Source: Podarcis gaigeae
Lineage: Eukaryota
Reading direction: 5' to 3' (one strand)
DNA: 64,000 nt
NCBI GenBank assembly: GCA_964106915.2
Contig: OZ066916.1
Of the stretch, positions 14,248 through 63,605 are shown piece by piece (position 1 is the stretch's first letter; each line of letters begins with the position of its first letter). A program made the position numbers and the translations under genes. Below the pieces are notes generated by a model that was not told the DNA's origin, did no database searches, and saw nothing but the letters and a program-made list of their open reading frames with translations.

Positions 14248-14382
14248 CAGGCTTCCTCAACCTCGGCCCTCCAGATGTTTTAGACTACAGTTCCCATCAT
14301 CCCTGACCACTGATCCTGCTAGCTAGGGATCATGGTAGTTGTAGGCCAAAAACATCCGGGGGGCCAAGGCTGAGGAAGCCTG
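14248..14382. mobile_element. 135-bp palindromic hAT-type MITE
   Basis: Long TIRs CAGGCTTCCTCAACCTCGGCCCTCCAGATGTTT / AAACATCCGGGGGGCCAAGGCTGAGGAAGCCTG; near-TSD GGAAAAGG vs GGAAAGGA; decayed relatives near 1920-2410, 8530-8648, 16158-16270, 57840-57955. Confidence 0.8.
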
Positions 14383-14401
14383 GGAAAGGAATATGCTAAA
14401 G

Positions 14402-15430
14402 AGAGTTGGGGTGAGGGCTGTGTTCTCACCCCAATTATCTTTGGCATGTTCTTCTTCCTGTTGCTCTCCTATGCCTTCAGCTTGACTGAAGACTGTGTGT
14501 ACATCCATTCAAGGTGTGACAGGGGCCTGTTCAATCTAGCACATTTCCGCACCAAGAGAAAAGTGTGTTGGGTCCTTATCCAAAAGATGTTTGCAGATGT
14601 CGCAGCCTCGACAGCGCACTCTGAGGAAGCTCTGCAGGGACTCATCAACCATTTTGCTCAAGCCTGCAAGGAAACCAGCCTTACCATCAGCCTGATGAAG
14701 ACCAACATCCTGGGTCAGGACATTGCCAGCACCCCACACATCAGCATTAGTGATCACACATTTGAAGTGGTAGACAATTTTGTCTACCTGGGTTCCACTA
14801 TAACCAGCAACCTCTCAATCAGCGCTAAGCTGGACTAGCGTATTAGCAAGACAGCTATGAAGAAGGCTCACCTCTCCAAAAGGGTTTGGGAGAATGTGAT
14901 GTTCATGTCAATACCAAGATGACGGTCTACCAGGCTTGCATGTTGAGCATGCTGCTTTACGGAAGTGAGCCATGGGCAACTTAGATCTGCTTCCACATCT
15001 TCCACATGTGCTGCACCAGGAAGATTTTGGGTATCATATGGCAGGACAGAGTTGCAAACAAGGATGTGCTGTCTATTTCAGCTTGGTCATGTCCACAGAA
15101 TGGAAGATGGCAGATGGAAGGTGGCTTCAGGCACTAGGCCTATTGGCAAACCAACATTGCATTACAAAGATGTCTGGGCAACATTAACTCCACCATGTGG
15201 GAATCCCTTGCAGACAACCGCAGGGCCTGGAGACATCAATGACTAGAGGAGGAATGACCACTGGGAGGAGTGCAGGGAGAAGAAATGCCATGGCGCACCT
15301 GTAGCAGGACAGCAGGTCACCTTCATCTGTCCCAGCTGCTACAAAACATGTTTCTCCTGTATTGGTCTCTACAGCCACACAGCAAGTGCTCAAAGAGACA
15401 CTTTCCATTGTCTCCTGAGACAGACAGCCA
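14402..15430 (+). mobile_element. 5'-truncated, decayed RTE-clade LINE (RT C-terminal half and 3' end)
   Basis: ORF 14446..14838 FFFLLLSYAF...GLFNLAHFRTKRKV...MFADVAASTAHSEEALQ...TISLMKTNILGQ...VVDNFVYLGSTI is RTE-type RT; downstream LGHVHRMEDGR and GTRPIGKPTLHYKDV; many stops and frameshifts. Confidence 0.85.
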
Positions 15431-34855: not shown

Positions 34856-35802
34856 CAGTGGTGCCTCGCAAGACGAAATTAATTCGTTCCGCAAGTCTTT
34901 TCGTCTTGCGAGTTTTTCGTCTTGCGAACCACGGTTTCCCATAGGAATGCATTAAAAATCAATTAATGCGTTCCTATGGAAACCGCCTTCAGACCAGGTC
35001 CGGGGACAGTCTGTCCCCCGACCTCTTCTGAAGGCCGGCAGGGGGCGAAAGTCTTTGCTCCCCCCCCCCCCCCGCCTGCCTTCCCGGGACAGCGGAGACT
35101 TCTCCGCTGTCCCGGGGCGATCTTAAAATTCTGGCGGGCGGCAGCGAAGGGTTCGCTGCCATCCCCCAGTATTTTAAAAGCCCCCGGGACAGCGGAGACT
35201 TCTCCGCTGTCCCGGGGCGATCTTAAAATGCTGGCGGGCGGCAGCGAAGGGTTCGCTGCCATCCCCCAGCATTTTAAAAGCCCCCGGGACAGCGGAGGAC
35301 TTCTCTGCTGTCCGGGGCGATTTTAAAATGCTGGCGGGCGGCAGCGCTGCCGCCCGCCAGCATTTTAAAATCGCCCCGGGACAGCGGAGGAATTCTGCCT
35401 TCAAAAGCCGTCCGGGGGCTTTTAAATCACCCCTGGACAGCCCGGGGCGATTTAAAAGCCCCCGGGAAGGCAGGCAGGGGGGACATAGACTTTTGCCCCC
35501 CGCCCGCCTTCAGAAGAGGTCCTGCTATCCCGGACTGCTTTTAAAATGCTGGCAGTGGGGAGCAAAGCCTTTCGGCCCCCGCCAGCCTTCCTGGACCTCT
35601 TCTGAAGGCCGGATGGGGGGGAAAGGCTTTGCTCCCCACCGCTAGCATTTAAAAGAGGTCCCCGGAGATTTCCCTATGGGCTTTCATCTTGCGAAGCAAG
35701 CCCATAGGGAAATTCGTTTTGCGAAGCGCCTCCAAAACGGAAAACCCTTTCGTCTAGTGGGTTTTTCGTCTTGTGAGGCGTTCGTCTTGCGGGGCACCAC
35801 TG
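34856..35802. mobile_element. Tigger-like (Tc1/mariner) non-autonomous element with internal GC-rich tandem palindromic repeats
   Basis: TA target duplication on both sides; TIR CAGTGGTGCCTCGCAAGACGAA / TTCGTCTTGCGGGGCACCACTG; 100-bp internal units at about 35083, 35183, 35283. Confidence 0.9.
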
Positions 35803-40760: not shown

Positions 40761-43058
40761 ATGTGTATTATTCATACTGTTTTGGCCTGTAAGGACAGAG
40801 GAGCAGAGACTTACCCTTCACTGCCTGCCCATGGGCTGCGGGGAAGTGTGCCTGCAGCAAAGAGGTTGCACATACCTCCGTATCTGTACTGTATATGTGG
40901 AAGTTTATATATATAGCTTTGGAGTAACTGGGTGGGTCGTTCTCTGGCTAGTTTGACATTTTTTGGCATTGTAGTTCAGAGAACTTTCCCAGCTGTGTGC
41001 CAAATTCAAGCCAGGTGTGCTCTGATGGCTAACCCTATCTGCGCTAAGGGCATGCTTGATACTGTTCTACTAGCCTATCAGATAGCAATAGAAAAAGAGA
41101 CACCAATAGGATACCTAATCCCTCATTTTATATTCAGTAGAAACTGGGGACTTAACAAGTTCCTTGTGTGCAATATGCTATTCTGACTGTGAATCAGCCA
41201 GCAGGGGATGCTGTAAAAGTAATGAATTCCCTGCACTCTGCTTCATCTCAAAGTCATATGTCTCTCCCAAATCAAAACCATCCTTATCTTCAAGCTTATG
41301 TGTTTAATTGCTCTGCTGGGTAAAAATGGGTCCTTCTTTATCCCAGACACAGCCAAAGGTTTTACGGGTGAAACCATTTCTTTGCCACCACAAGTAGGAT
41401 TGTTCTTTCTGTTGCTTCTAGTGTTTGCTTCATTCAGTTTTTTCTTGAAAAATATTTTTACAACAGAATCATACTAATTTTATTCACGAGGCCCTCGCCC
41501 AGTTAAAAAATAATTTATTTGATTGAGCTAGTCCGAAATTTCTAAGATTAATCTGCATAACTGCATATTTTTTTGTTTATATATGTGTTGTAGCAGGACT
41601 TATCTTAGGTAGGGTCTACACATTAATACATATAACAAAATCCCAGTGGTCAAAAGCAGCAAATGGAGAGGATGGGGAATGTTATAATCGTAAACGTTTT
41701 TATAACCTGTAGCCCAGTTTATCTTTTTAATCATCTAATTTTACCAATAAATAGACCAGGGTGGGAGTGAGGTCTACTTGTTGCTGTTATGAATTCAACC
41801 ACATTGATTTGCATAACATATTTGCTATATGTTAATTTGGATTTTTGTACTGTATTTGTATTTGGGATTGTTTAGGGACTTCTGTTGGGGAGTGTTTTTT
41901 AATTAGTTTGTATACATTAGTATTGTTAATTGTTTCAATTATTTTTATTTATGTATTTTGTGCTGTAACTTTGTGTTGTGAACCATCCTGAGACCTACAG
42001 GTATAGGGCGGTATACAAATTTTAACAACAACAACTCAGTGGGGCTAAAATAGATCTATAGGATTGTACTGTAGATCTATAGGACTGCAGTCCTTTGACT
42101 CTTTAACTGGGTACAAGCCTCATTGGAACACATTTTATTGTATGTAAATTGTATAGTATATTTGTTGTGATGGATATTCTCAGTATATCTTCTCAGTGCA
42201 GAATAACAAAACACCATACTTAGTAAATAGGTACATTCAGTACTTTTTTCTGGGGGGTACGCAAGGGTACACAGTACACTGGGTACATTTTTATTTTGCC
42301 CATTTAGACCCAATAGAAAGCTGGTGATCCATAGTGGCATAAGTGGCAGAACAGAGATATATGGATTGCCTTGTTGCAGTTCCATAAGCCTCCAGCAAAT
42401 TGAACTACCCTGTCATCATGGTTAATACTAGACGCCATTTGTTGATCCACAAATCCCAGGAGAGTAGAATTTTCCTGAATCTGGATCCTTCAAACTAGTA
42501 TCAGGCACACATAAGATTTTCTTTTCATTGTGTATGACCTGATATATAGGGTTTGAGGAGTTATGCGGTAGAAAACATGGAAACATCAAGGAGACTGAGC
42601 AAGGAAGATACGGAAGCTAGAAGGCTAAATAAAATAGTCCATACAATAAAAGTCTTGATTATCAAGAAGGCCTAGTGAGTGGTCTGTGAATAGCTGTGAA
42701 CTATGTCTTACTATTGTGGAAGAGAAGTGGCTGTGATAAGGATATGATGGGTATTTGTGTGAAAGACCTATGTAAGATGCTCTGAATTTTCTAAAAGAAG
42801 AGTGGGATATAAATAAATATTGTGTTATACAATGTAACTATTTTGCAGAGTAAAGTACAGTTGTCTCAGAGGGGAGGAGGCAAAGCTACATTGAGAAAGG
42901 TTTCTCCCCCCCAGGACTGAGAAGGCAGTTCTCTTCAATCCCCTCTCCCATTTATTCTGAAGAGAAGCCTCCCTTCCAGTCCACAGACATCTTTCTGCTT
43001 CAGAGAGGCAAGCCTCATTGGTCCTTCTATCAGTGCTGTAGCTAAGTGGGGGGCTAGC

Positions 43059-43097
43059 TGTTTGTTTGTTTGTTTGTTTGTTTGTTTGTTTGTTTGT
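43059..43097. repeat. (TTTG)n microsatellite
   Basis: Direct observation. Confidence 0.95.
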
Positions 43098-43208
43098 TCT
43101 GGGTAAAGCCTCCAGAAGAGTGCCATTGAGGTTCCCAGCATGTGTGTGTATGTGCAAATGCATGTTTGTTTGGGTGTGTGTGTGCCATATGGGTCTTTGA
43201 CGAGCTGG

Positions 43209-43493
43209 GTAATCTGGTGAACCGGGTTCGCTTCCCCGCTCCTCCACATGCAGCTGCTGGGTGACCTTGGGCCAGTCACACTTCTCTGAAGTCTCTCAGT
43301 CTCACTCACCTCACAGAGTGTTTGTTGTGGGGGAGGAAGGGAAAGGAGATTGTTAGCCGCTTTGAGACTCCTTGAGGGGAGTGAAAGGTGGGATATCAAG
43401 TCCAAATTCTTCCTCCTCCACCACCACCACCACCTCCTCTTCTTCTTCTTCTTCTTCTTCTTCTTCTTCTTCTTCTTCTTCTTCTTCTTCTTC
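43209..43493 (+). mobile_element. 5'-truncated Squam3-like SINE with expanded (TCC/ACC/TTC)n tail
   Basis: Near-identical to 28960-29160 over most of its length; long (TTC)n tail. Confidence 0.85.
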
Positions 43494-46368
43494 ACCGAAT
43501 GAAATAAAACCAAATTCCATCCCTGCCTTCCAGCCAATGAACTACTTGCCAAAAAGAAAAGAAAAAAGCCTCCATGAATAAGCAATAGAATGAGTATCCC
43601 AGGGACAGGTAGGACAAAGCTAACCATCAAAGTGTTTCCTTCTAAAGCTTGTTAACTCTTAAATTTAGGGGGTTCATGGGGGTGTCTATGAGACTCAAAC
43701 GGGAGCTCCCATAAAACCTTCCTTTCTGCAGTGGGACCAGAGAGAGGTATCTGAGGAAAGGGAGGCCTCTTCTTTCTTCCAGGCTCTGTAGGAGGGGCCT
43801 TCCAAAAGGCAGATAGCTATAGGCTTCCAAAACTCACCTTCCACGTCACAACAAGCAGTTCTGGACAGGGTTATATGCTATTTTTGTCTTTCCTTTTACA
43901 TGTGAATGTGGACTAGATAGACCTTTGGTCTCATGAAAGAGTTGCTCTTACGTTCTCATAAATTTTAAATTTTGATCAATGTATTTTTTGAGTTCTTGCT
44001 TTTTATATTACAAAAAAGTATATAGGAGTAGCAAACTCTTTGTACATTTTAAGTGCCTAGAATTAAGAAAGAACTTGTTTCCCTGTAGTGAGATGCAGCA
44101 TTTCCTTCCATCAGGTTACACCCGTTGTTCAGTGCTTTTTAAATAACTGAAAACTCTGTGATTGTTTAACCATTTTAAAGCATGCCTCAGCAATTATTTC
44201 AATGTTGAGGCAGACCTAATGGGAAGAAATGAGAATTATAATTTTTTCCATCTTGAATATATGACAGGAACTTTCTATTAATTTTCCCCAGGCAGTTCAT
44301 CATTGGTTAATGTGCAATGTGCTTCTCACTAAAGTGGCCTTGGAGCATTTTTGTGGTTTTTCCATAATTAATGCCATGCCTCATATGTCCACTTTTACTG
44401 CATTCATTAGTTGACTTCAGTGGATTGACACCCCGCATAGAATTATTGCAAAGAGTTTGTTAATGCTAAGTGGATGTAATTTTCCATGCTGGATAAAGTT
44501 TATGGGTCAGTTGGGTTTGCTTTAAGGTAATTAAACCACCAATTTCAGTGGCTTCACTTGTGTGACATTGGATATAACCCCATTGTGTTAGCAAATCATT
44601 GGTTTTAAGTCAGGGGTAGGGAATCTTTTTCAACCCAAGGGTCACATTCCCTTGTGAGCAACATTTTAGAGGCCTTGTGCAAAAGGTGGGCAGGGCAGAG
44701 ACAAAAAAATAGGGCAGAACCAATGAATATGAGAGCCTTACAGTTTGCTATATTCCAGCCTTGCAAAAAAGTCAGAAGTGTACGCACAAGTACAGATACA
44801 CACACAGCCTCCTCCATCAGGCAAGCAAGAGACATTAACACAAGTCAGGGACATCTTCAAGCCGTCAAAAGCACTTGAGGAAGGCACAGAACGCATTGAA
44901 AGATTTTAGCAGTATCACAATACAACATCTTGAAACAAATCATTATAGCAGTAATAAAAATTAAGCAAACAAAAAGAGCCATCCCGCCTTGCAAACCAGC
45001 TTGCTATCACACTTAAAAACTAGCAGTAATTTTTAAAAAATCCAGTCAAGAAAACCCCCAGAAGAATAAAATGGTCTTTGCTTATCTCCTAAAAATAGAA
45101 TCATAGGTGCTAGGCATATCTCTCTGGGATAAAGTGTTCATCTGATTTCTGCAGATGAGACACCCAGGATATGTGATGATCTAAGACTTGGGTACTGAGT
45201 GAACAGACAGGTTAGTGCAAGAGAAAGCAGTTCATCAAATACCTGATTCTTGGCCGTAGTAATCACTTAGGTTTGTTGACCCTAAACTGCTTAGGACTTT
45301 TCATAGCCTGTGTTTCAAGTTATATTCTGTGGTTTTTAAAATCAGTAGGAGAAGAAACTCATGTGTTATAAGGAAATAAAACTTTCATATTTAATTTAAC
45401 ATATTTTGGTTTTTTAATAAATATGTGGGAGTTTTTTTCTTAGTGCTTCAGTTGTAGCGGTGGGAATAGTGTTTGATGGGTGGGTTACTCTGCCTTCTCC
45501 TTCCCCTCCCCCATTTTTCTTTTACTGAAATTCCATTGACAATAATTAAGAAACGGGGGCCAGCAAGAGGTCAATAAGTCTCTGCCAGTGAAACCAGGGA
45601 TTGTTTCCCATGTACAACACTCTCTATTCCGCCCCCCCCCCCAGCTTTGCCCTTGTGGCAAATATAACTCTGATGACTTCTGTCTTTCTTGTAAGTTGTG
45701 CAACTAGTGAGGAACCGAGGGTGGGGAGGGAGATGATTTATGTGAGCGAAAGACCAGCCAGTTGATTGTGTTTTGATTGTTCCCTGCTTCTCTTCACTTA
45801 CCAAGTAGTGGTTAGGAAAGCCAATCTTACATCTGGTACTGTAACTCCCGACAACAGGCGTTTTGCGGCAAGGTTAGGATTCCTGCATAGTTCTTTTGAG
45901 GGGGAAATGCTTAAGCCTAAATTTTGGGGTTACGCAACTGAGAAAGGGCAGTACTCAAGGGAGGATTATTCAGAACACAGTGTTAGGTCTCCTGAATGCC
46001 AGCCCTGTTAGGTCATCAAGCCTGTGGCTCAGTATTCATAGGATGTGCTTCCCATCCTGCAAAGTGATGGGGGTGGTGGAAGAAAGGGCTCCTATAGCTA
46101 TAATTAACTATGGGTGTTTCCAGATAGGGCTTAATATTGCAAACAGGATATTCAGATGCCGCAGACGTTGGCAATACGTTTTTCTGACATCGGATTTTCC
46201 ATGAAAATGGTGGATGTGCATTAAATGAGAGAGAGATACAAGCTGGCATTTGGACACTGCTAACATGCTGCGGGTGCTGTGAAAACCTATAATAACACAC
46301 CCATCTGGAAACACACAGTTAATCATGTTAAAATTCCTGGTTTTATTTATTTATTGAAAACTTTTATA

Positions 46369-49160: not shown

Positions 49161-51558
49161 TATTGGGAGTACAGTATAGAATCATAGAATTGTAGAGTTG
49201 GAAGAGACACCAAAGAACTCTGCCTCCAAGGTGAGCACATCCTTCAACCCTGCATGGAAATAACCAGGAGAGTGATGTGGAAGAAAAGTCCCACCTTGGA
49301 GGACCATCAGGAATTGCACTCTGGATTGCTGGATTCTGATCCTACTTGGATGGAGTCAACATTTCTGCTATGGAATTAATGTTTTAATCTAGTGGCCTCT
49401 TTGCTTCATGAAGCTCCAGGTTGGGTGAATGAAAGCAATGAACACATTTCAGAAAGTTCCCATCTGAAATTAAAGGCTGCGTATGTGACAGGAAAATCAA
49501 TTCCAGCCCACAACGATGAGACCCTTGTGAAAGTTATTTTGTCACCGTGTGGAGATACGTGGCTGCAATAGTTTTATTTATCAAGGGTAGCTTAATCAAT
49601 GAAGTAGACCATTGCCAATCTGTTTTATGTGAGGGTTTTTTGTAGTTTTTGTGGCAATAAGCACCAAAAATAATGTTCATGAGAACTTATTTCTCCCATT
49701 TCAGTACAGGACAAAGTCACACTTTACCTCCTATCCATGGTGGAAGAGGTATTGAATATTCTTATCCATTCATTCCACCATCACATCCACCAAATGTATA
49801 AACTAAACATATTTGCCTAAGGGCTGATGAACATATGGAGGCCACTAAGTTGCTTCAGGTGACAAGATTGCCTCTGTGTAGGGTTGTAGGGATTGTACAG
49901 TTTTTTGTTGTATGGATTGTACAGTTTTCTCTCTTCACTACAGGTTTTTTTTATCATTAGTAATGTATAGAACAATATAATCTACTTTCTTAAGTATTGG
50001 ACTAATAACTGTTGTTCAGCCTAAAAAACATCACTCAGTGCACCCAAAGGATTGAGGAAATATATTTGTCATTACTACTCAGAACTTTGGCATCCTTGCA
50101 AAATATTTTTGCAACAGTATAATTTATTTCAGAAAGTGTGTATGTTTTAACCCCGCCCCCCAAAAATTTCAATTATAAATACACCAGACAAATGATGCTC
50201 TAAGCGCCAGTTGGTCTTGCCTTGGACCAAATGGTTAGCTTCACGCTTACATGTTTTGTAGGAGTCAGTTTTTAAATAAAGCTTATTTTGTCAGGCTTAA
50301 AACATCACCAGAAAATAATGGTGCATTCCAACATGGAAACACAAGTGACCTGAAGTTCACTGACAGGAAGTTGCTCTTGAGATTTCTAAGCTGGATGTTC
50401 AGAATGTGATGAATTGGTCAGAGCTCCGTACATGGAGGCAAAGTGAGGGATACAGTCTTCAGAGATTTCCAGCTGGAATATTCTCTCTTCCTTGGAATGC
50501 ATTGTGTACAGTGGCAGTGCTGTACTGTAAAAGCAAAGAGGGCCCCACTCTTTCTTCCTTCCCCTTCCCTGCTTTCTACTCTCTCACACACAGATTCTAA
50601 ACAGGGCACAACAGAGGAAGTAGCATATTGAGCACTGGATCTGGCTTGAAAATGGGAGCTCTGATTTGGTTCACAAGGAATGGATTGTTTCAGCTTGTGG
50701 TGTCACTGCTGCTGGAGAGGGTGGATTTTTTTGGTCTCTGTAATGTTTGATACTTGAGGGAAAACAGCTGGAACTGAGCATACTGCATCAGATGTGAGAC
50801 AAAATGGGATGCTGGGGAATATGGACTATACTCAGTGCCTGTAAAGGTCAGAGTTTTCCTTTGGTCAGATCTGGAGGAATGCTGCATCCATATTAGCAGC
50901 CAGCCTTGAGAATCCTCAGAATGAGAAGCTCCAAGACAGCGAAGGAGAAGATCTTTCTGTGGCTAATAAAACAAGTCAGAGTGGATGAGATCTCCTATTT
51001 CCTTTCCCTTCCCTTCCTTTTACCCCCCTCCCATCATTTTTGCTGCTGCTGCTGTTTTTGATTTACTTGGAAGTCTGGAAAAAAGTAGTCAATGATAGAG
51101 TTTCAGTTCAGTTTGGAGAAGCTGTTTATAACCAGGTTTTTAAATGTCAAGAGCCGCCAGGCCAGACAAGACCAGTGCCTGACCCAAACCACAGGAGCCT
51201 AACTAGCATGGCTAAAAGAGTCCCAGGAAAGAGTTCTGCCTGAAATGCGCTCAGAGACAACGTGGAAGTAGCTATTATTGCACAATGGGTGGAGAGAAGG
51301 ATGAGGGCTGCAATGCATTTAGGTGCCTGAGACCTTGCCGTGCGCTAATTTAGAAGTTAAAATGGTATGTGCTGTTCTTTTTAAAGCAGTTTGTGTGTGA
51401 GAGAGAGAAATTGCGGCGGGGGAGAGTAAGTGTGACCTGAGCTTGAAAATAACAGTTTTAAGTTACAGGATTTTCCTTGTCACAGAGCACAGTAAGCCTA
51501 AGGCTGCATCGACTTGACTTCAGAAAGTGATTGAGCTGCGGGATAATTCTTTTATTAA

Positions 51559-52710: not shown

Positions 52711-53236
52711 GCAGAAGATGGCATCATCCTTTCTGGTAAATGCTCTCTTTTTAATGTGAAACACAGAAAGTCCCTGCCACTTTGAGTTTTTTACTCACAC
52801 TTATTTTCTGCAAGTTCTGGAGCTATGAATTGTGACTCTTCAGTGAGCTGTGCTGCTTTAGGGGGTGGGGAGGAATTAAGACAAAGTGCAAATGGGAGGT
52901 TACCCCATAGGTTAGAAGGCCAGTGGGTTTCTCATGGGATTCTGAAACATCTGCCTGAGTAGAGCCGCTCCCTTCAGTCTCTGCAAGTTATTCTTTCACC
53001 AAGGAATAGGAATGACAAGTCTGTCAGAAAATCTATGCGGTTCACTTGGGTAGAAGTGGGAAACTACCACATTTTTTTCCATGGCAGAGAGTGACTTAAC
53101 CCTTCAGAGCACGCATTCAGCTCTATTTGGCATGCTGTTTGTTTGTTTGTTTACAGCTACAGTTACGGATAAAAACAAATCTGTTGAGGGTTAAAGAAGC
53201 TGTTCATAGAACATTTTAATAATAATGCATACTAGG

Positions 53237-55259
53237 CGGTCCTGGAGGTTTTGCTGAACATGATAAGGAAAGACCAGCTGGTTAAAGGGGTTCAGGTCGG
53301 AGCGAAACAATATAAATTGAGAGCATTTGCAGATGACTTGGTACTTACACTACAAGAGCCAGAATCTAGCACGAAAAGGGTTTTGGAATTAATTCAAGAG
53401 TTTGGTCAAGTGGCAGGATTTAAATTAAATAAATTAAAGACTAAGGTATTAGAGAAGACTCTAACAGTAAGAGAGAAGGAGAGGTTTCAGAATGAAACAG
53501 GTCTAACGGTGGTTAAAAGTGTAAAATATTTGGGGATTAATATGACAGCTAAAAATATGAACTTATTTAAAGACAATTATGAGAAATGTTGGAATCAAGT
53601 GAAAAAAGATTTAGAAATTTGGTCAAACTTGAAGCTTTCTTTGTCTGGTCGAATAGCAGCTATTAAGATGAATGTACTGCCTAGGATGTTATTTTTGTTC
53701 CAAACACTGCAAATTGTTGATAAGATGGGGTGTTTTAAGGGATGGCAGCGAGATATTTCTAAATTTATCTGGTAGGGCAAAAAACCCAGAATAAAATTTA
53801 AGATTTTAACTGATGCAAAGGAAAGGGGGGGATTTGCCCTGCCAGACTTGAAACTTTACTATGAATCAGCAGCTTTCTGCTGGTTGAAGGATTGGCTGCT
53901 TCTTAAGAACACGGACATTTTAGATTTGGAAGGTTTTAATAACTTTTTTGGGTGGCATGCATATTTGTGGTATGACAAAGTTAAGGTTCATAAAGGCTTT
54001 AAAAATCATATTGTCAGGAAAGCACTGTATAATGTTTGGATCAGATATAAAGACCTACTGGAGAATAAAACTCCAAGGTGGCTTTCACCAATGGAGGCAA
54101 AAGCTGTGAAAAAACTTAATATGGAGTGTATATAGCCGAAATATTGGGAAATTCTAGAACAGGAGGGTACTAATTTAAAACTGCAGAGTTTTGAGAAATT
54201 AAAGGATAAAGTGCGAGATTGGCTTCACCACTACCAAATATTGGAGGTTTACAAGCTGGATAGGAAAATTGGTTTCCAGGTGGAGAAATCAAAATTGGAA
54301 ACAGAATTGTTAGAATCCAATACTAAGAATTTGTCAAAAATGTATAACTTGCTGTTGAAATGGAATACGCAAGATGAAACGGTGAAATCAGCTATGATTA
54401 AGTGGGCGCAAGATATTGGTCATAACATTATGTTTGCTGACTGGGAAAGGTTGTGGACCACCGGCATGAAATTTACGGCATGTAATGCCTTGAGAGAGAA
54501 TATTATGAAAATGATCTATAGGTGGTACATGACCCCAGTCAAGCTTGCAAAAATCTACCACTTGCCAGATAATAAATGTTGGAAATGTAACGAAAATGAA
54601 GGCGCATTCTTTCACCTCTGGTGGACGTGCCCAAGGATTAAGGCTTTCTGGGAAATGATATATAATGAAATGAAAAAGATGTTTAAATACACTTTCTTGA
54701 AGAAACCAGAGGCCTTTCTCCTGGGTATGGTCAGCCATGTGGTGTTAAAGAAAGACAGAACTTTGTTTTTGTATGCCACAACAGCAGCAAGGATTCTTAT
54801 CGCAAAGTATTGGAAGACATCAGATTTACCCACCCTGGAAGAATGGCAGATGAAAATGACAGACTATATGGGACTCGCAGAGATGACGGGCAGAATCCGA
54901 GACCAGGAGAAAGAGACAGTGGAAGAAGATTGGAAGAAATTTAAGGACTATCTTAACAAATACTATAAGATTAAGGAATGTTAGATTGACATGGACTTAA
55001 AAACAATGTGGTTTTCAGAGACATTAAGTAAGAAAAGGAATGGAATTTAAAAAAAAAAATGGGGGAAATAAGGGAATGGATTTGCTGATGGGATAATGAA
55101 ACTAGAATACAAAACGGTGAGGTATGAGGAAGTCAGGGAAATTAGGTTGAGGAAATAAGTTTCGAAATTATACTTGTTGTTTTTTGTTTGTGTTTGTTCT
55201 TATTGTTGTTGTTTGTATTTGTATGTTTTAATTGGAAAATTCAATAAATATTATTATAA

Positions 55260-57697: not shown

Positions 57698-58360
57698 TAC
57701 TTGTAAATAGCAGTCAGAGGATCTTATCTTTGATCTTAGCACTGTGGTTCATAGCACTAAGACTGGAGATAAAGGATCCCCCTGTCTACTATATAAAGAG
57801 GATAAAAAAAGATCTCCATTAGCAGGCAGAGCACTTTTTTCAATCAGACTGTGGGAGTTGGCATGTCAGTTCCCATCAACCCTGACTGTAGGCCAGGCTT
57901 GCTGGAGCTGTTGGGAGTCAAACAATCTCTGGAGGAGCACAAGCTGCCCACCCTTGTAATAGTTCATTAACCATAACTGAAGTTTTATTAAATGCATATT
58001 AAATGGAATTATGATGTTTTGTTTCCTTTTTGCTCCTCTGCTCTTTTCTACTCTTTCTGTCCTAATAATGTTAAAGAAATACTTTGTTACAAAGAGCCTT
58101 TTTCCCTTTTATAAAATTAAAGCTAGAAATGATTTGTTCTGTTAAAAATGAATTAAGAATATTGAGATGTGTACACCAGTATCCCTGCCTTGTTTTCCAG
58201 ACATTTGTATCACTGCTTGGTATCTCTCAGATGGTTCTGTTCTTCAGAAAATGAGAATGGCCGCATACCTCTTCGGTTGGAGGGGGTGCACCTCTGTTGC
58301 TTTCTTTTCACACTCATAGTTAAGTATGTGAAAGCTAATGTGCTATTTCCCTCCTTGTAG

Positions 58361-58707
58361 GTGTGGATGAGCATTCCCTTGACAGCTCTCCAGTACCAGA
58401 TGACAGATCAGCACTTTATTCTGGAGTTCACAAGAAGCAACTTTACTCAGATAGCTCTACTGAGAAACAGCCAGATGAGGACTCTGACTCACTCACCACA
58501 TCTCCTTCATCGAGCAGCCTAGATACTTGGGGTACTAACAGGAAATTGCTCAAGACCTTCAGTAAATCTGAAAGCCGTGGCCTTATCAAACCCCCCAAGA
58601 AACTTGGAACATTTTTCTCCTACCCAGAAGAGGAGAAGACTCCAAAGGTTTGCCGCTCCTTGACTGATGGAGAGATGAAGAAGAACCTTGGTTCTCTGAG
58701 CCACGGG
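58361..58707 (+). CDS. SASH1: SASH1 coding exon (~exon 10), (G)[10 protein letters not shown]...[17 protein letters not shown]...[12 protein letters not shown]
   Basis: ctccttgtag acceptor, GGG|gtaagt donor, 347 nt, phase 1/0; N-terminal part of ORF 58363..59292 matches recalled human SASH1. Confidence 0.96.
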
Positions 58708-59202
58708 GTAAGTAAAGAAAGCGTTTGCTTTTATGACAACAGGCGCAAGCACCATGTCTTGGTATCCTTTGAGGAAATCCAGAGTGTCAGGAAGCAGATC
58801 CGACTGAAAAAGACAGATTCTAACTACTCGTGTTCTAGAGCTTTTCTTTGCCAGCGCCCTGCTAGGAAATACATATCACCCTCAATTTGTGACCTGCAGC
58901 TGCTTCGTCACAAAGCCAAGGGGGTAGGAGGAGGAGGAGGCTGTGGCTTCCCAAACAGAAGGCTTCGAGGGCGCAACTCTGTCAGCGAGTTCAATATCAC
59001 GTATGTGGTAGAAAGAAGTCTCTACAGTCACCTGAACCTGTCACATCTGGTGCGGCCCGTTACTGACAGGACACTGAGCAAAGCTGAAGAGCAGGATTTG
59101 AGGCGATGTCTGCTGGAAGAAGAGGATGAGGCAAAGAGAAAGTGGGCTGCCACAATGGACCGCTGTACTAAAAGGGTTCTTTTGAGAATCCACCAAAAGT
59201 CT
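58708..59202 (+). CDS. SASH1: Putative in-frame extension of SASH1 exon 10 (alternative 5' splice site), 165 aa VSKESVCFY...RIHQKS
   Basis: Frame stays open past the canonical donor; second donor TCT|gtgagt at 59203 is phase 0 like the canonical one; 495 nt = 165 codons. Confidence 0.65.
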
Positions 59203-62200
59203 GTGAGTCCAAGAGTTATCACTGACGGAGGCCTTCTGGCTCCCATGAGGTTGCAGTCAGCATGGCGTGTTTTCCTCCACCATAACATCTGAAATGCATA
59301 GTTCATTGGCCTTCTCTTCTCTTCTCCTCCGCTCCTCAATTATTTGCCAACAGGATGTTCTAATAAGTGTTTGGACAGAGTGTCCTGGTCCCCAGTGTCC
59401 AAACTGGCAAAATATTAAGGGGAAACACATTGCCCTTATGATTCAGGATGACTAAAGGCAAGAAAAGCACTTTTTTGGTGCAGAAACACAGGTTTGCATT
59501 GAAAAGTAATAATAATGAAGCTATAGCATTCTTTAGCAGAAATGATAAAACTGCAACTTCACTCAGCTATATTCCTCCTTATCCGTATAACTTTTTACAA
59601 ACACGCTACCCCCACTTTTGAGTACTCAGGTTTTTTGATGTCCTTGGATAATGGAGGTTAGTTAGTTGTTTTCAGGGTATTTATACCCCAACCTTCCACA
59701 ATAAAAGCATCAGAGCAGTTTGCAAAATTTAAAGAATAATAAAAGGACAGTAAAAATATCAGGTGATCCTGCAGAACATTGAAAGCAGTGGTGGGCTGCA
59801 GGTGTTATTTGGCCTTTGGGTCCATCTTCCCCAAGCCATACTCATCTGCCTTACATCTGACGTCATATATGAGATCAGATATGAGGCAGGGAAAGATGTG
59901 ACTTCATGCCAAAAGCATGGTTTGCAGGTCCTGCTGGTGGGCAGTGTTTGAGAGGTGATTGACAAGGAGGCAGCCCCACCCCATGTCAAAATGGCCCACT
60001 GAGCTTGGGGGACTTTAGGATCTGTCCCACCAGCCAGATTCCCCACACCTGATTTAAAAGAAGGAATATACAATGGATCTTTAGAATATGTGACCATATT
60101 GTTCCTTTTAAGCTGTCAAAGCACAGCACCTCCTCAGTGTTCCTACCAGAGGCTACGAAAGAAATATGTCTAAAAGTATTACCCATTGTGTGGCCCAATG
60201 TGCCTCTTCAAAAAAGAAAAAAATAGCCTTACCCTGTGGGAGGCAGAAGTGGGTATAGTGGCAGTAAAGGTGAGGAGGGAAAGTTCACGCAGTGTGTATT
60301 CAGCAAGCCTGTCCTTTCCCAAGACAGTCAAACTTTTTTTATGCCTGTTGTCAGAGAGGTCCATTGTGCGATGACTGTACAACCACCAAGAACATGTGGG
60401 AGTGGCAGAGATAGGAAGGGAAGCATCTTCATGCATCCCTTCTCATGAAGGTGATTATCATTAAAACTGGTTCTACATGTCTCATGAAAACAGGATTGCA
60501 TTAATCCTCCCTAACCAGGAGGGGAATGGAAGTTCTACATAGGTATGGTTAGGGCAAATGTGCCACGTTGTCAACCTTCAAAAATATCCTATGCCAGTAT
60601 GTTATTTATTTTATTCCTACTGATCACTTACACTGTGCAAGTGCTGTACAGTTCCTTAACTCACTTACAGTGTAGCCCTAAACAGTTTCCTTACAACATA
60701 GTTGCATTGTGTTCAATGAGGCTTAATGCTTTAAGATTACAGCCAAATTCCTACAACTGCCTGTAAGTGGGGCAGTTTTATTTCAGTTTCCTAGCTAGGA
60801 AACTGATGTTGAGAGCTAATATATTTCCAAAGAACAATGAACAAGCCCATGGCCGAATGGCATTTTGAACCAGGATCTCCCAAGGCAAGGCAATCACATC
60901 AGCTGGTTCTCAGAAGCTCTCCTGTTTCTTGGATGCTGAGGAAAGAACAGATCATCTGTCCTAGTTTTCTACAGCTGTAAGATTGTTTTCTTTGTAGGAG
61001 GGAAGGGAGGCACATTTGTTAATAGATTCATTAGACCTAGAGGAGATTTCAGTGGAAACTATTACACAGCATAACACAATGAGAGGTTTAATTGACTTTT
61101 TGTTAGTTAATTTTTAAGGGTGTGACTTTGGCAGACAAAAGAAGAACATAATCTTTCCTGCTGTTTTTTAGCCAGCTTTGTGCCTGCATTTGGCTAGTGG
61201 CCATTTTGAGGATATGTTAATTTCTGGCTAGGACAGATTTTTTCTCCCAGTTGTGTCATACATAAGTAGTTGATTCTGGCCTTCTTTGTAATGTACTTCA
61301 CTAAAATTAGTACTCTCAAGTGATCTTACTTATGGGGAGCCAGAAGAAGGGGGGAAAGCATTTCAGAAGGTGGCACACAAGATATTTTAGCTTGATATAT
61401 AAATAGGCAGCATAGCTTTCATATTCCTTATAAAGAAACTGAAATGTCCCATAAATTATTCTGTTGTCAATACAATGGCCATTTCATATAGCTTGTGGTT
61501 TTTGTAGCAAGGAGCCCAATATCCTTATGTGACTGTGATATGTTTACCCTGTTCTATAGGAGAGAAAGATATTTATTTCCTTTTATTTTATTCAGATAGA
61601 CCCTTTAATTAACTACATCCTGTGGCTTTCTTCCTTTCAAAAGAAAGGCAAAAATTAAACTGAGTGTGAACTTTAAGCACCTCTTCTTCTAAGATCATAA
61701 TTCATGCTTACTGCAGCCTCAGGGAATTATGGAAGCCTCTTGTTCAGTATGATGAGTTATTTGTCTTGTATTCACATTTATTTTTGGCATCTAAATTTGT
61801 TTTGGTGGCCCAGGCATGCATAGAACCTTTTGAACATGCACCAATCTGTTTTTGATCGCATGACCATTCCATTGACTAGCCTACAGCCTTTTATCCACAG
61901 ACTTTGTTTGGCATGTATCTCATAAAATTATTGGAAGTTATTAAATACATATATTTCAAGGCAAATTGTGTTATGACTTTATAGCAGCACTGCTAGAATC
62001 CTGAAGAGAATACTGGCACTACTTTCAGTTACATGTTACATTCCAGCATTGTCAAAAATAATCCTTTGGCTATAATTTTCTCTGTATAATGCTAGATATC
62101 ACATGTGCTAGAACTGTGGCTTCTGGGGTGATATGTGCACACCTCTTGCACATGCATACCAGTTTTGCCTGAAAACTGATCTCTGCATTTGATATTTAAG

Positions 62201-63533: not shown

Positions 63534-63605
63534 AGAACCTGCAGCTTTGGTGGCTTTGACTTGACAAATCGCTCACTGCACATTGGAAACAATTTGGATC
63601 AGATG
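63534..63605 (+). CDS. SASH1: SASH1 coding exon (~exon 11), [24 protein letters not shown]
   Basis: tcttgtgtcacag acceptor, ATG|gtgagt donor, 72 nt, phase 0/0; contains the SLy-family RxxSF motif. Confidence 0.95.

Follow-up and report, generated by a model that had tools for sequence, protein, structure and literature searches.

Exon 10 of SASH1 and its two donors

The window (the whole stretch of 64,000 nucleotides analysed here) carries on its + strand exons of SASH1, onto which the protein P0001 maps at 89-98%. P0001 has PF12485, SH3_2 and SAM hits, which place it in SASH1 of the SLy family. The canonical short form of exon 10, numbered from the exon map, spans 58361..58707 (347 nt) behind an acceptor TTGTAG whose last base is 58360. 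It was located by tblastn of P0001 and is covered by reads or contigs in 4/4 sequencing runs. The short (proximal) 5′ splice site GGG|GTAAGT (58705..58713) cuts at 58707/58708, and the long (distal) 5′ splice site TCT|GTGAGT (59200..59208) cuts at 59202/59203 in the same phase, phase 0. Between the two cuts lies an alternative coding extension of exon 10 (58708..59202) of 495 nt or 165 codons. Exon 11 (63534..63605), where the SPIDER region starts, provides the acceptor for both and opens with AGA ACC TGC AGC (RTCS). Two GT donors on one exon, equal in phase and sharing one acceptor, make this an alternative 5′ splice-site arrangement. All features described below lie on the same strand.

The first-pass annotation, made from the letters and an open reading frame list, had proposed 194 further open codons in frame beyond the short donor, and a second donor that inserts exactly 165 aa ahead of RTCS; both statements agree with the sequence. 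The stop-free frame runs from 58339 to 59289 (317 codons) and ends at an in-frame TGA (59290..59292) that is reached only when both donors are skipped. None of 5000 base shuffles of 58708-59289 preserved 165 open in-frame codons. In a simple count against the donor consensus CAGGTAAGT, the short donor matches at 7/9 positions and the long donor at 5/9, with 0/3 of the exonic positions matched. The second donor has the phase that was claimed for it, but the label 'strong' was overstated.

The first-pass annotation also held that no intronic stretch outside transposable elements has a comparable ORF. When ORFs of at least 110 codons are taken in all six frames of the window, the sole + strand one longer than 194 codons besides the SASH1 exon (54136-54981) is read as part of a LINE-type ORF, and a minus-strand ORF of 238 codons (42938-43651) is a simple repeat. 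The former is the last of three successive + strand ORFs in a single, stop-interrupted frame (53236-54981) that resemble a LINE reverse-transcriptase fragment, as does the second half of a + strand ORF of 154 codons at 14374-14835; in both places we take the LINE label as presumptive. An intronic GC-rich stretch at 34966-35642, made of repeated units and open on both strands, is probably a repeat element. Positions 50921-50980 match at 90% the N-terminal 20 residues of isoform X5 of Lacerta agilis SASH1 (P0236), and by this match they are a likely alternative first exon immediately ahead of exon 9.

The long isoform and its conservation

A protein search with the 165-aa insert finds 279 homologous proteins. 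The insert is 100% identical to part of XP_028579458.1, which RefSeq predicts as isoform X2 of SASH1 in Podarcis muralis. With orthologues ranging from reptiles to teleosts the identity is 63-96%, the lowest value of 63% belonging to a teleost. The matches listed (best 120 of 279) come from reptiles, birds, mammals, amphibians, lungfish, coelacanth, bichir, sturgeon, gar and a teleost. A search with a fish query gives 225 matches, mostly teleosts among those listed, and neither shark nor lamprey appears among the matches listed in either search (best 120 of 279 and of 225). In a cluster look-up the curated human isoform 6 (NP_001333438.1), which joins the insert to exon 11, human XP_024302153.1 and mouse XP_030101116.1 all carry it. 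These three records and the Podarcis XP_028579458 have the same insert at the same place and the same QKS|RTCSF junction as the lizard. The insert is 163 aa long in human isoform 6 as against 165 aa in the lizard, and the records state no function. In contrast, canonical SASH1, encoded by the same gene and sharing the SPIDER-SH3-SAM1 core and SAM2, is without the insert and carries HGRTCS407.

The two search lists together comprise 216 distinct proteins; in 183 of them QKS is joined directly to RTCSFGG, and 2 more have a few additional residues at this junction. The pattern is absent in the remaining 31, made up of 25 short ORFs, 2 variant exon 11 starts and 4 other junctions. The 183 joins support the longer SASH1 isoform that had been proposed to arise through an alternative in-phase donor. 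The accompanying surmise, that it might already exist among predicted isoforms, proved correct for lizard, bird, mammal, amphibian and fish, with the curated human record in addition. The long SASH1 isoform is real, ancient and, as the human and mouse records show, already annotated. In three fish models (P0118, P0126 and P0196) the insert is joined beyond exon 11 and the RTCS exon (63534-63605) is skipped, an event that would delete S407 entirely.

Comparison of the 165 aa with orthologues, suggested at the outset as a check, reveals protein-level conservation as far as teleosts, with indels that preserve the frame. The insert varies from 156 to 219 aa among 199 distinct inserts and is always in frame. 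This open frame, together with conservation of the protein in distant orthologues, identifies the extension as conserved coding sequence. Region by region, the identity of 20 chosen orthologues to the lizard sequence is 76-98% over the C-terminal half of the insert and 50-91% over its N-terminal half, against 80-93% for the SPIDER region and 30-71% for the post-SAM1 linker. The C-terminal half is thus conserved like SPIDER and far above the linker. The donors themselves leave a trace in the protein alignments. Reading through the short donor gives V-S in 214/214 aligned sequences (217 distinct sequences less 3 fragments that were too short), and reading through the long donor gives V-S in 32/33 genomic ORFs from other species, with immediate divergence downstream. 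From this signature we infer that both donors trace at least to the bony-vertebrate ancestor.

Four runs from related organisms, guessed to be RNA, were mapped on 58100-59150. The short junction, from 58707 to the letters of exon 11, occurs in 3/4 of them: X24 has it in 3 reads, X1 and X2 in their main contigs. X1 has one small contig wholly within the extension, at depth 3.7 against 17.5, and X2 one of the same kind, at 4.9 against 47.3. X23 and X24, with 6 and 20 raw reads, have zero depth on 58712-59150 (about 12% of each run). The extension contigs of X1 and X2 could derive from mRNA, pre-mRNA or DNA. The short form dominates in these four lizard-relative runs. Use of the long donor is suggested by the RefSeq records of other species and by conservation, and the long form would be a minor, probably tissue-restricted isoform.

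The junction motif at S407

The Ser407-equivalent codon (63543-63545) lies within exon 11, and a His codon of exon 10 (58702..58704) stands at position -5 to it only with use of the short donor. If the length of the canonical protein is 1247 aa, as we take it to be, counting from human isoform 6 also makes the RTCS serine S407. The translated short junction reads H-G-R-T-C-S407, which is HxRxxS, and the long junction K-S-R-T-C-S. HG|RTCS is present in 119/120 of the junction-search matches listed (best 120 of 1142), which are amniotes only. Long forms have KS|RTCS in 232/234 sequences and Lys at -5 in 234/234, a count that used an H/N-G/A anchor. In the unanchored check the exon 10 His is H in 214/214 aligned orthologous sequences. 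Its invariance is not singular, as 17/115 canonical exon 10 columns reach 99% conservation. Among the cluster members listed, 113 of 124 are long forms and 2, both from turtle, are short; fish or amphibian short forms do not occur among these members, a sample biased toward long forms. At the long junction H-Q-K-S-R-T is formed in 107/199 inserts. HxKxxT can be read as a LATS-type sequence, and H-Q-K-S-R-T may therefore act as such a site, moved upstream by two residues.

The LATS/NDR consensus is HxRxxS/T (PMC3849777). The short form has both the -5 His and the -3 Arg, while the long form is without the -5 His. In a short primate protein HGRTCS is the sole H.[RK]..[ST] match, and the HxRxxS at S407 is gone in the two long proteins, human and lizard, that were scanned. 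Translation of the two predicted junctions shows that donor choice decides whether S407 lies in a LATS consensus, the short donor giving HGRTCS and the long donor KSRTCS. The isoform itself is known; it is this predicted change of the junction motif at S407 that is new here.

The published record on S407 is divided. A phosphopeptide of the exon 11 RTCS is labelled S407 in PMC2994767, where AKT is given as the potential S407 kinase. According to Jiang 2020, as cited in PMC11134552, S407 is necessary for LATS1-enhanced phosphorylation. In the system of PMC11134552 itself S914, not S407, is necessary for the LATS shift, and the mass spectrometry of that paper does not list S407. In the accessible text of PMC2773716 the regulated 14-3-3 site is S90 and the basal site is unnamed. 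LATS phosphorylates certain substrates that are without the His (PMC3849777), and the -5 His is required at both LATS/NDR sites of Kif23 (PMC4320110). Kif23 (MKLP1/CHO1) resembles SASH1 in that splicing alters which HxRxxS LATS/NDR sites exist, as described in the accessible text of PMC4320110. The difference is that the long form of Kif23 gains a complete site through a cassette exon, whereas in SASH1 it is the junction that splits the motif, and the His is lost from the long form.

The inserted segment and its interpretation

The insert contains two conserved elements. A linear block at 58981..59034 (insert residues 92-109) is mostly disordered by prediction, with a pLDDT of about 46-50; most of its columns are at least 90% conserved in the 199 distinct inserts, and on this pattern it is likely a binding motif. 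A predicted 40-residue amphipathic helix (59080..59199; insert residues 125-164) lies just ahead of SPIDER (PF12485), which begins at P0001 residue 548, the final residue of the insert. AlphaFold run on the insert alone gives disorder apart from helix 125-164, whose pLDDT is 65-91. The full-length model of P0229 has a helix at 286-325 with a pLDDT of 57-73, in a weak model where even the SH3 domain is unfolded. In the helix, 17 of the last 21 positions are 98-100% conserved (199 distinct inserts). The first-pass annotation had foreseen a short charged helix; a helix is indeed predicted, but at 40 residues it is not short.

The insert has no Pfam family, no PDB sequence match and no usable ESM Atlas match, and Foldseek gives no match at E 0.001 with the low-confidence model as query. 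A 50%-cluster library yields 12 matches, all SASH1-like exon 10 fragments, and genome-wide there is no second copy. The genome has two further SPIDER loci, to which the names of the SLy paralogues SAMSN1 and SASH3 are assigned by inference. These paralogues have the SPIDER region in common with SASH1 and no match to the insert. A profile search of the stretches upstream of these loci (100 kb and 70 kb) likewise gives no insert match (best E 2), in stretches where the N-terminal half of SASH1 is also unmatched by tblastn and which may not cover the 5′ ends of the paralogues. Four kinds of motif considered for the insert (Akt-type RxRxxT, ITIM-like, IQ-like and RVxF-like) were dropped as variable or incomplete. 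Short conserved stretches set in otherwise disordered sequence most likely serve to bind partners.

The best explanation, to which we give a probability of about 0.55, is that this conserved alternative 5′ splice-site extension adds 165 aa, with a predicted partner-binding helix, and swaps the -5 His for Lys, a swap that likely uncouples S407 from LATS. The short donor would assemble HxRxxS at S407 across the exon 10/11 junction. The long donor would put Lys in place of the -5 His, making S407 a poor LATS site, though one that basophilic kinases of other kinds could use. Partners that do not bind the short form would be recruited by the helix and by the 92-109 block. A bolder version, held only tentatively, is that an ancient splice switch toggles the Hippo control of SASH1, so that the isoforms represent opposite signalling states of which the published SASH1 work covers one.

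A doubtful but serious alternative is that the isoform is real and acts only through the inserted helix and motif, as a new binding or oligomerisation surface, with the change at S407 of no consequence. The peak of conservation in the helix and in the 92-109 block points that way, as do the helix predicted in both models and the dispute over S407 as the key LATS site (PMC11134552, accessible text). The invariant -5 His argues against it: the residue is conserved in all 214 sequences though it lies beyond the three exonic donor bases, and it yields HxRxxS in the short form only. It is improbable that the helix is a Ca2+/calmodulin-binding segment that would make the long isoform calcium-regulated. 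The sequence R-K-W, with hydrophobic residues after it at 5, 8 and 14 and several basic ones, is reminiscent of the 1-5-8-14 motif found in myosin light chain kinases, and the hydrophobic moment peaks at 0.56 from KWAAT. However, there is an invariant Asp within the motif, the Cys at position 8 is atypical, an acidic run lies upstream, and such patterns fit many basic helices. That the conservation acts at the RNA level, or that the stretch feeds a shortened product of read-through as far as 59290, with no annotated long protein being produced, would fit an extension without raw reads in two runs and with only small contigs in two others, and the other junctions in a few gene models, but is highly improbable given the frame-preserving indels and conservative substitutions across 156-219 aa, the instant divergence past the long donor and the curated human NP_001333438.1.

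On the canonical SASH1 transcript the extension counts as intron. Literature listings over the main texts of Creative Commons articles in PMC and bioRxiv show no paper on it, and insert peptides and isoform accession terms also find no match there; subscription papers or supplements might list it. The accessible parts of PMC10252437, PMC2360597, PMC6225866 and PMC4670233 do not describe it, and in the accessible main text of the SLy family review PMC10252437 'isoform' and 'splic' are absent. The long isoform is already in RefSeq, so its occurrence in the lizard adds little. What carries weight is function: across the bony vertebrates sampled the segment is about as conserved as the SPIDER core, and the papers searched describe no role for it. 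Should the long form evade LATS at S407, the choice of isoform could account for differences between cell types in results on SASH1 and Hippo, and variant interpretation would be affected in a tumour-suppressor and pigmentation-disorder gene.

Two observations concern other parts of the genome. L025:1255-1704 and L028:1468-1917 (G000:C21) are adjacent intronless calmodulin-like genes of 149 aa that are 77% identical to each other. A SAMD5-type first exon (G000:C3:64513769-64514257; L050) lies about 462 kb upstream of the window on the same strand. A SAMD5-type SAM domain begins 61 of 244 long SASH1 proteins, most of which join PPYS.K to DGSLGNID; such SAM-first proteins occur in lizards, birds, platypus, frogs, bichir, sturgeons and teleosts. 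An in-frame 'fusion' of SAMD5 exon 1 to SASH1 exon 2 is presented in the accessible text of PMC5352057 as a novel rearrangement in chordoma with unchanged copy number. This 'fusion' is likely a conserved natural long transcript, encoding a SASH1 with three SAM domains.
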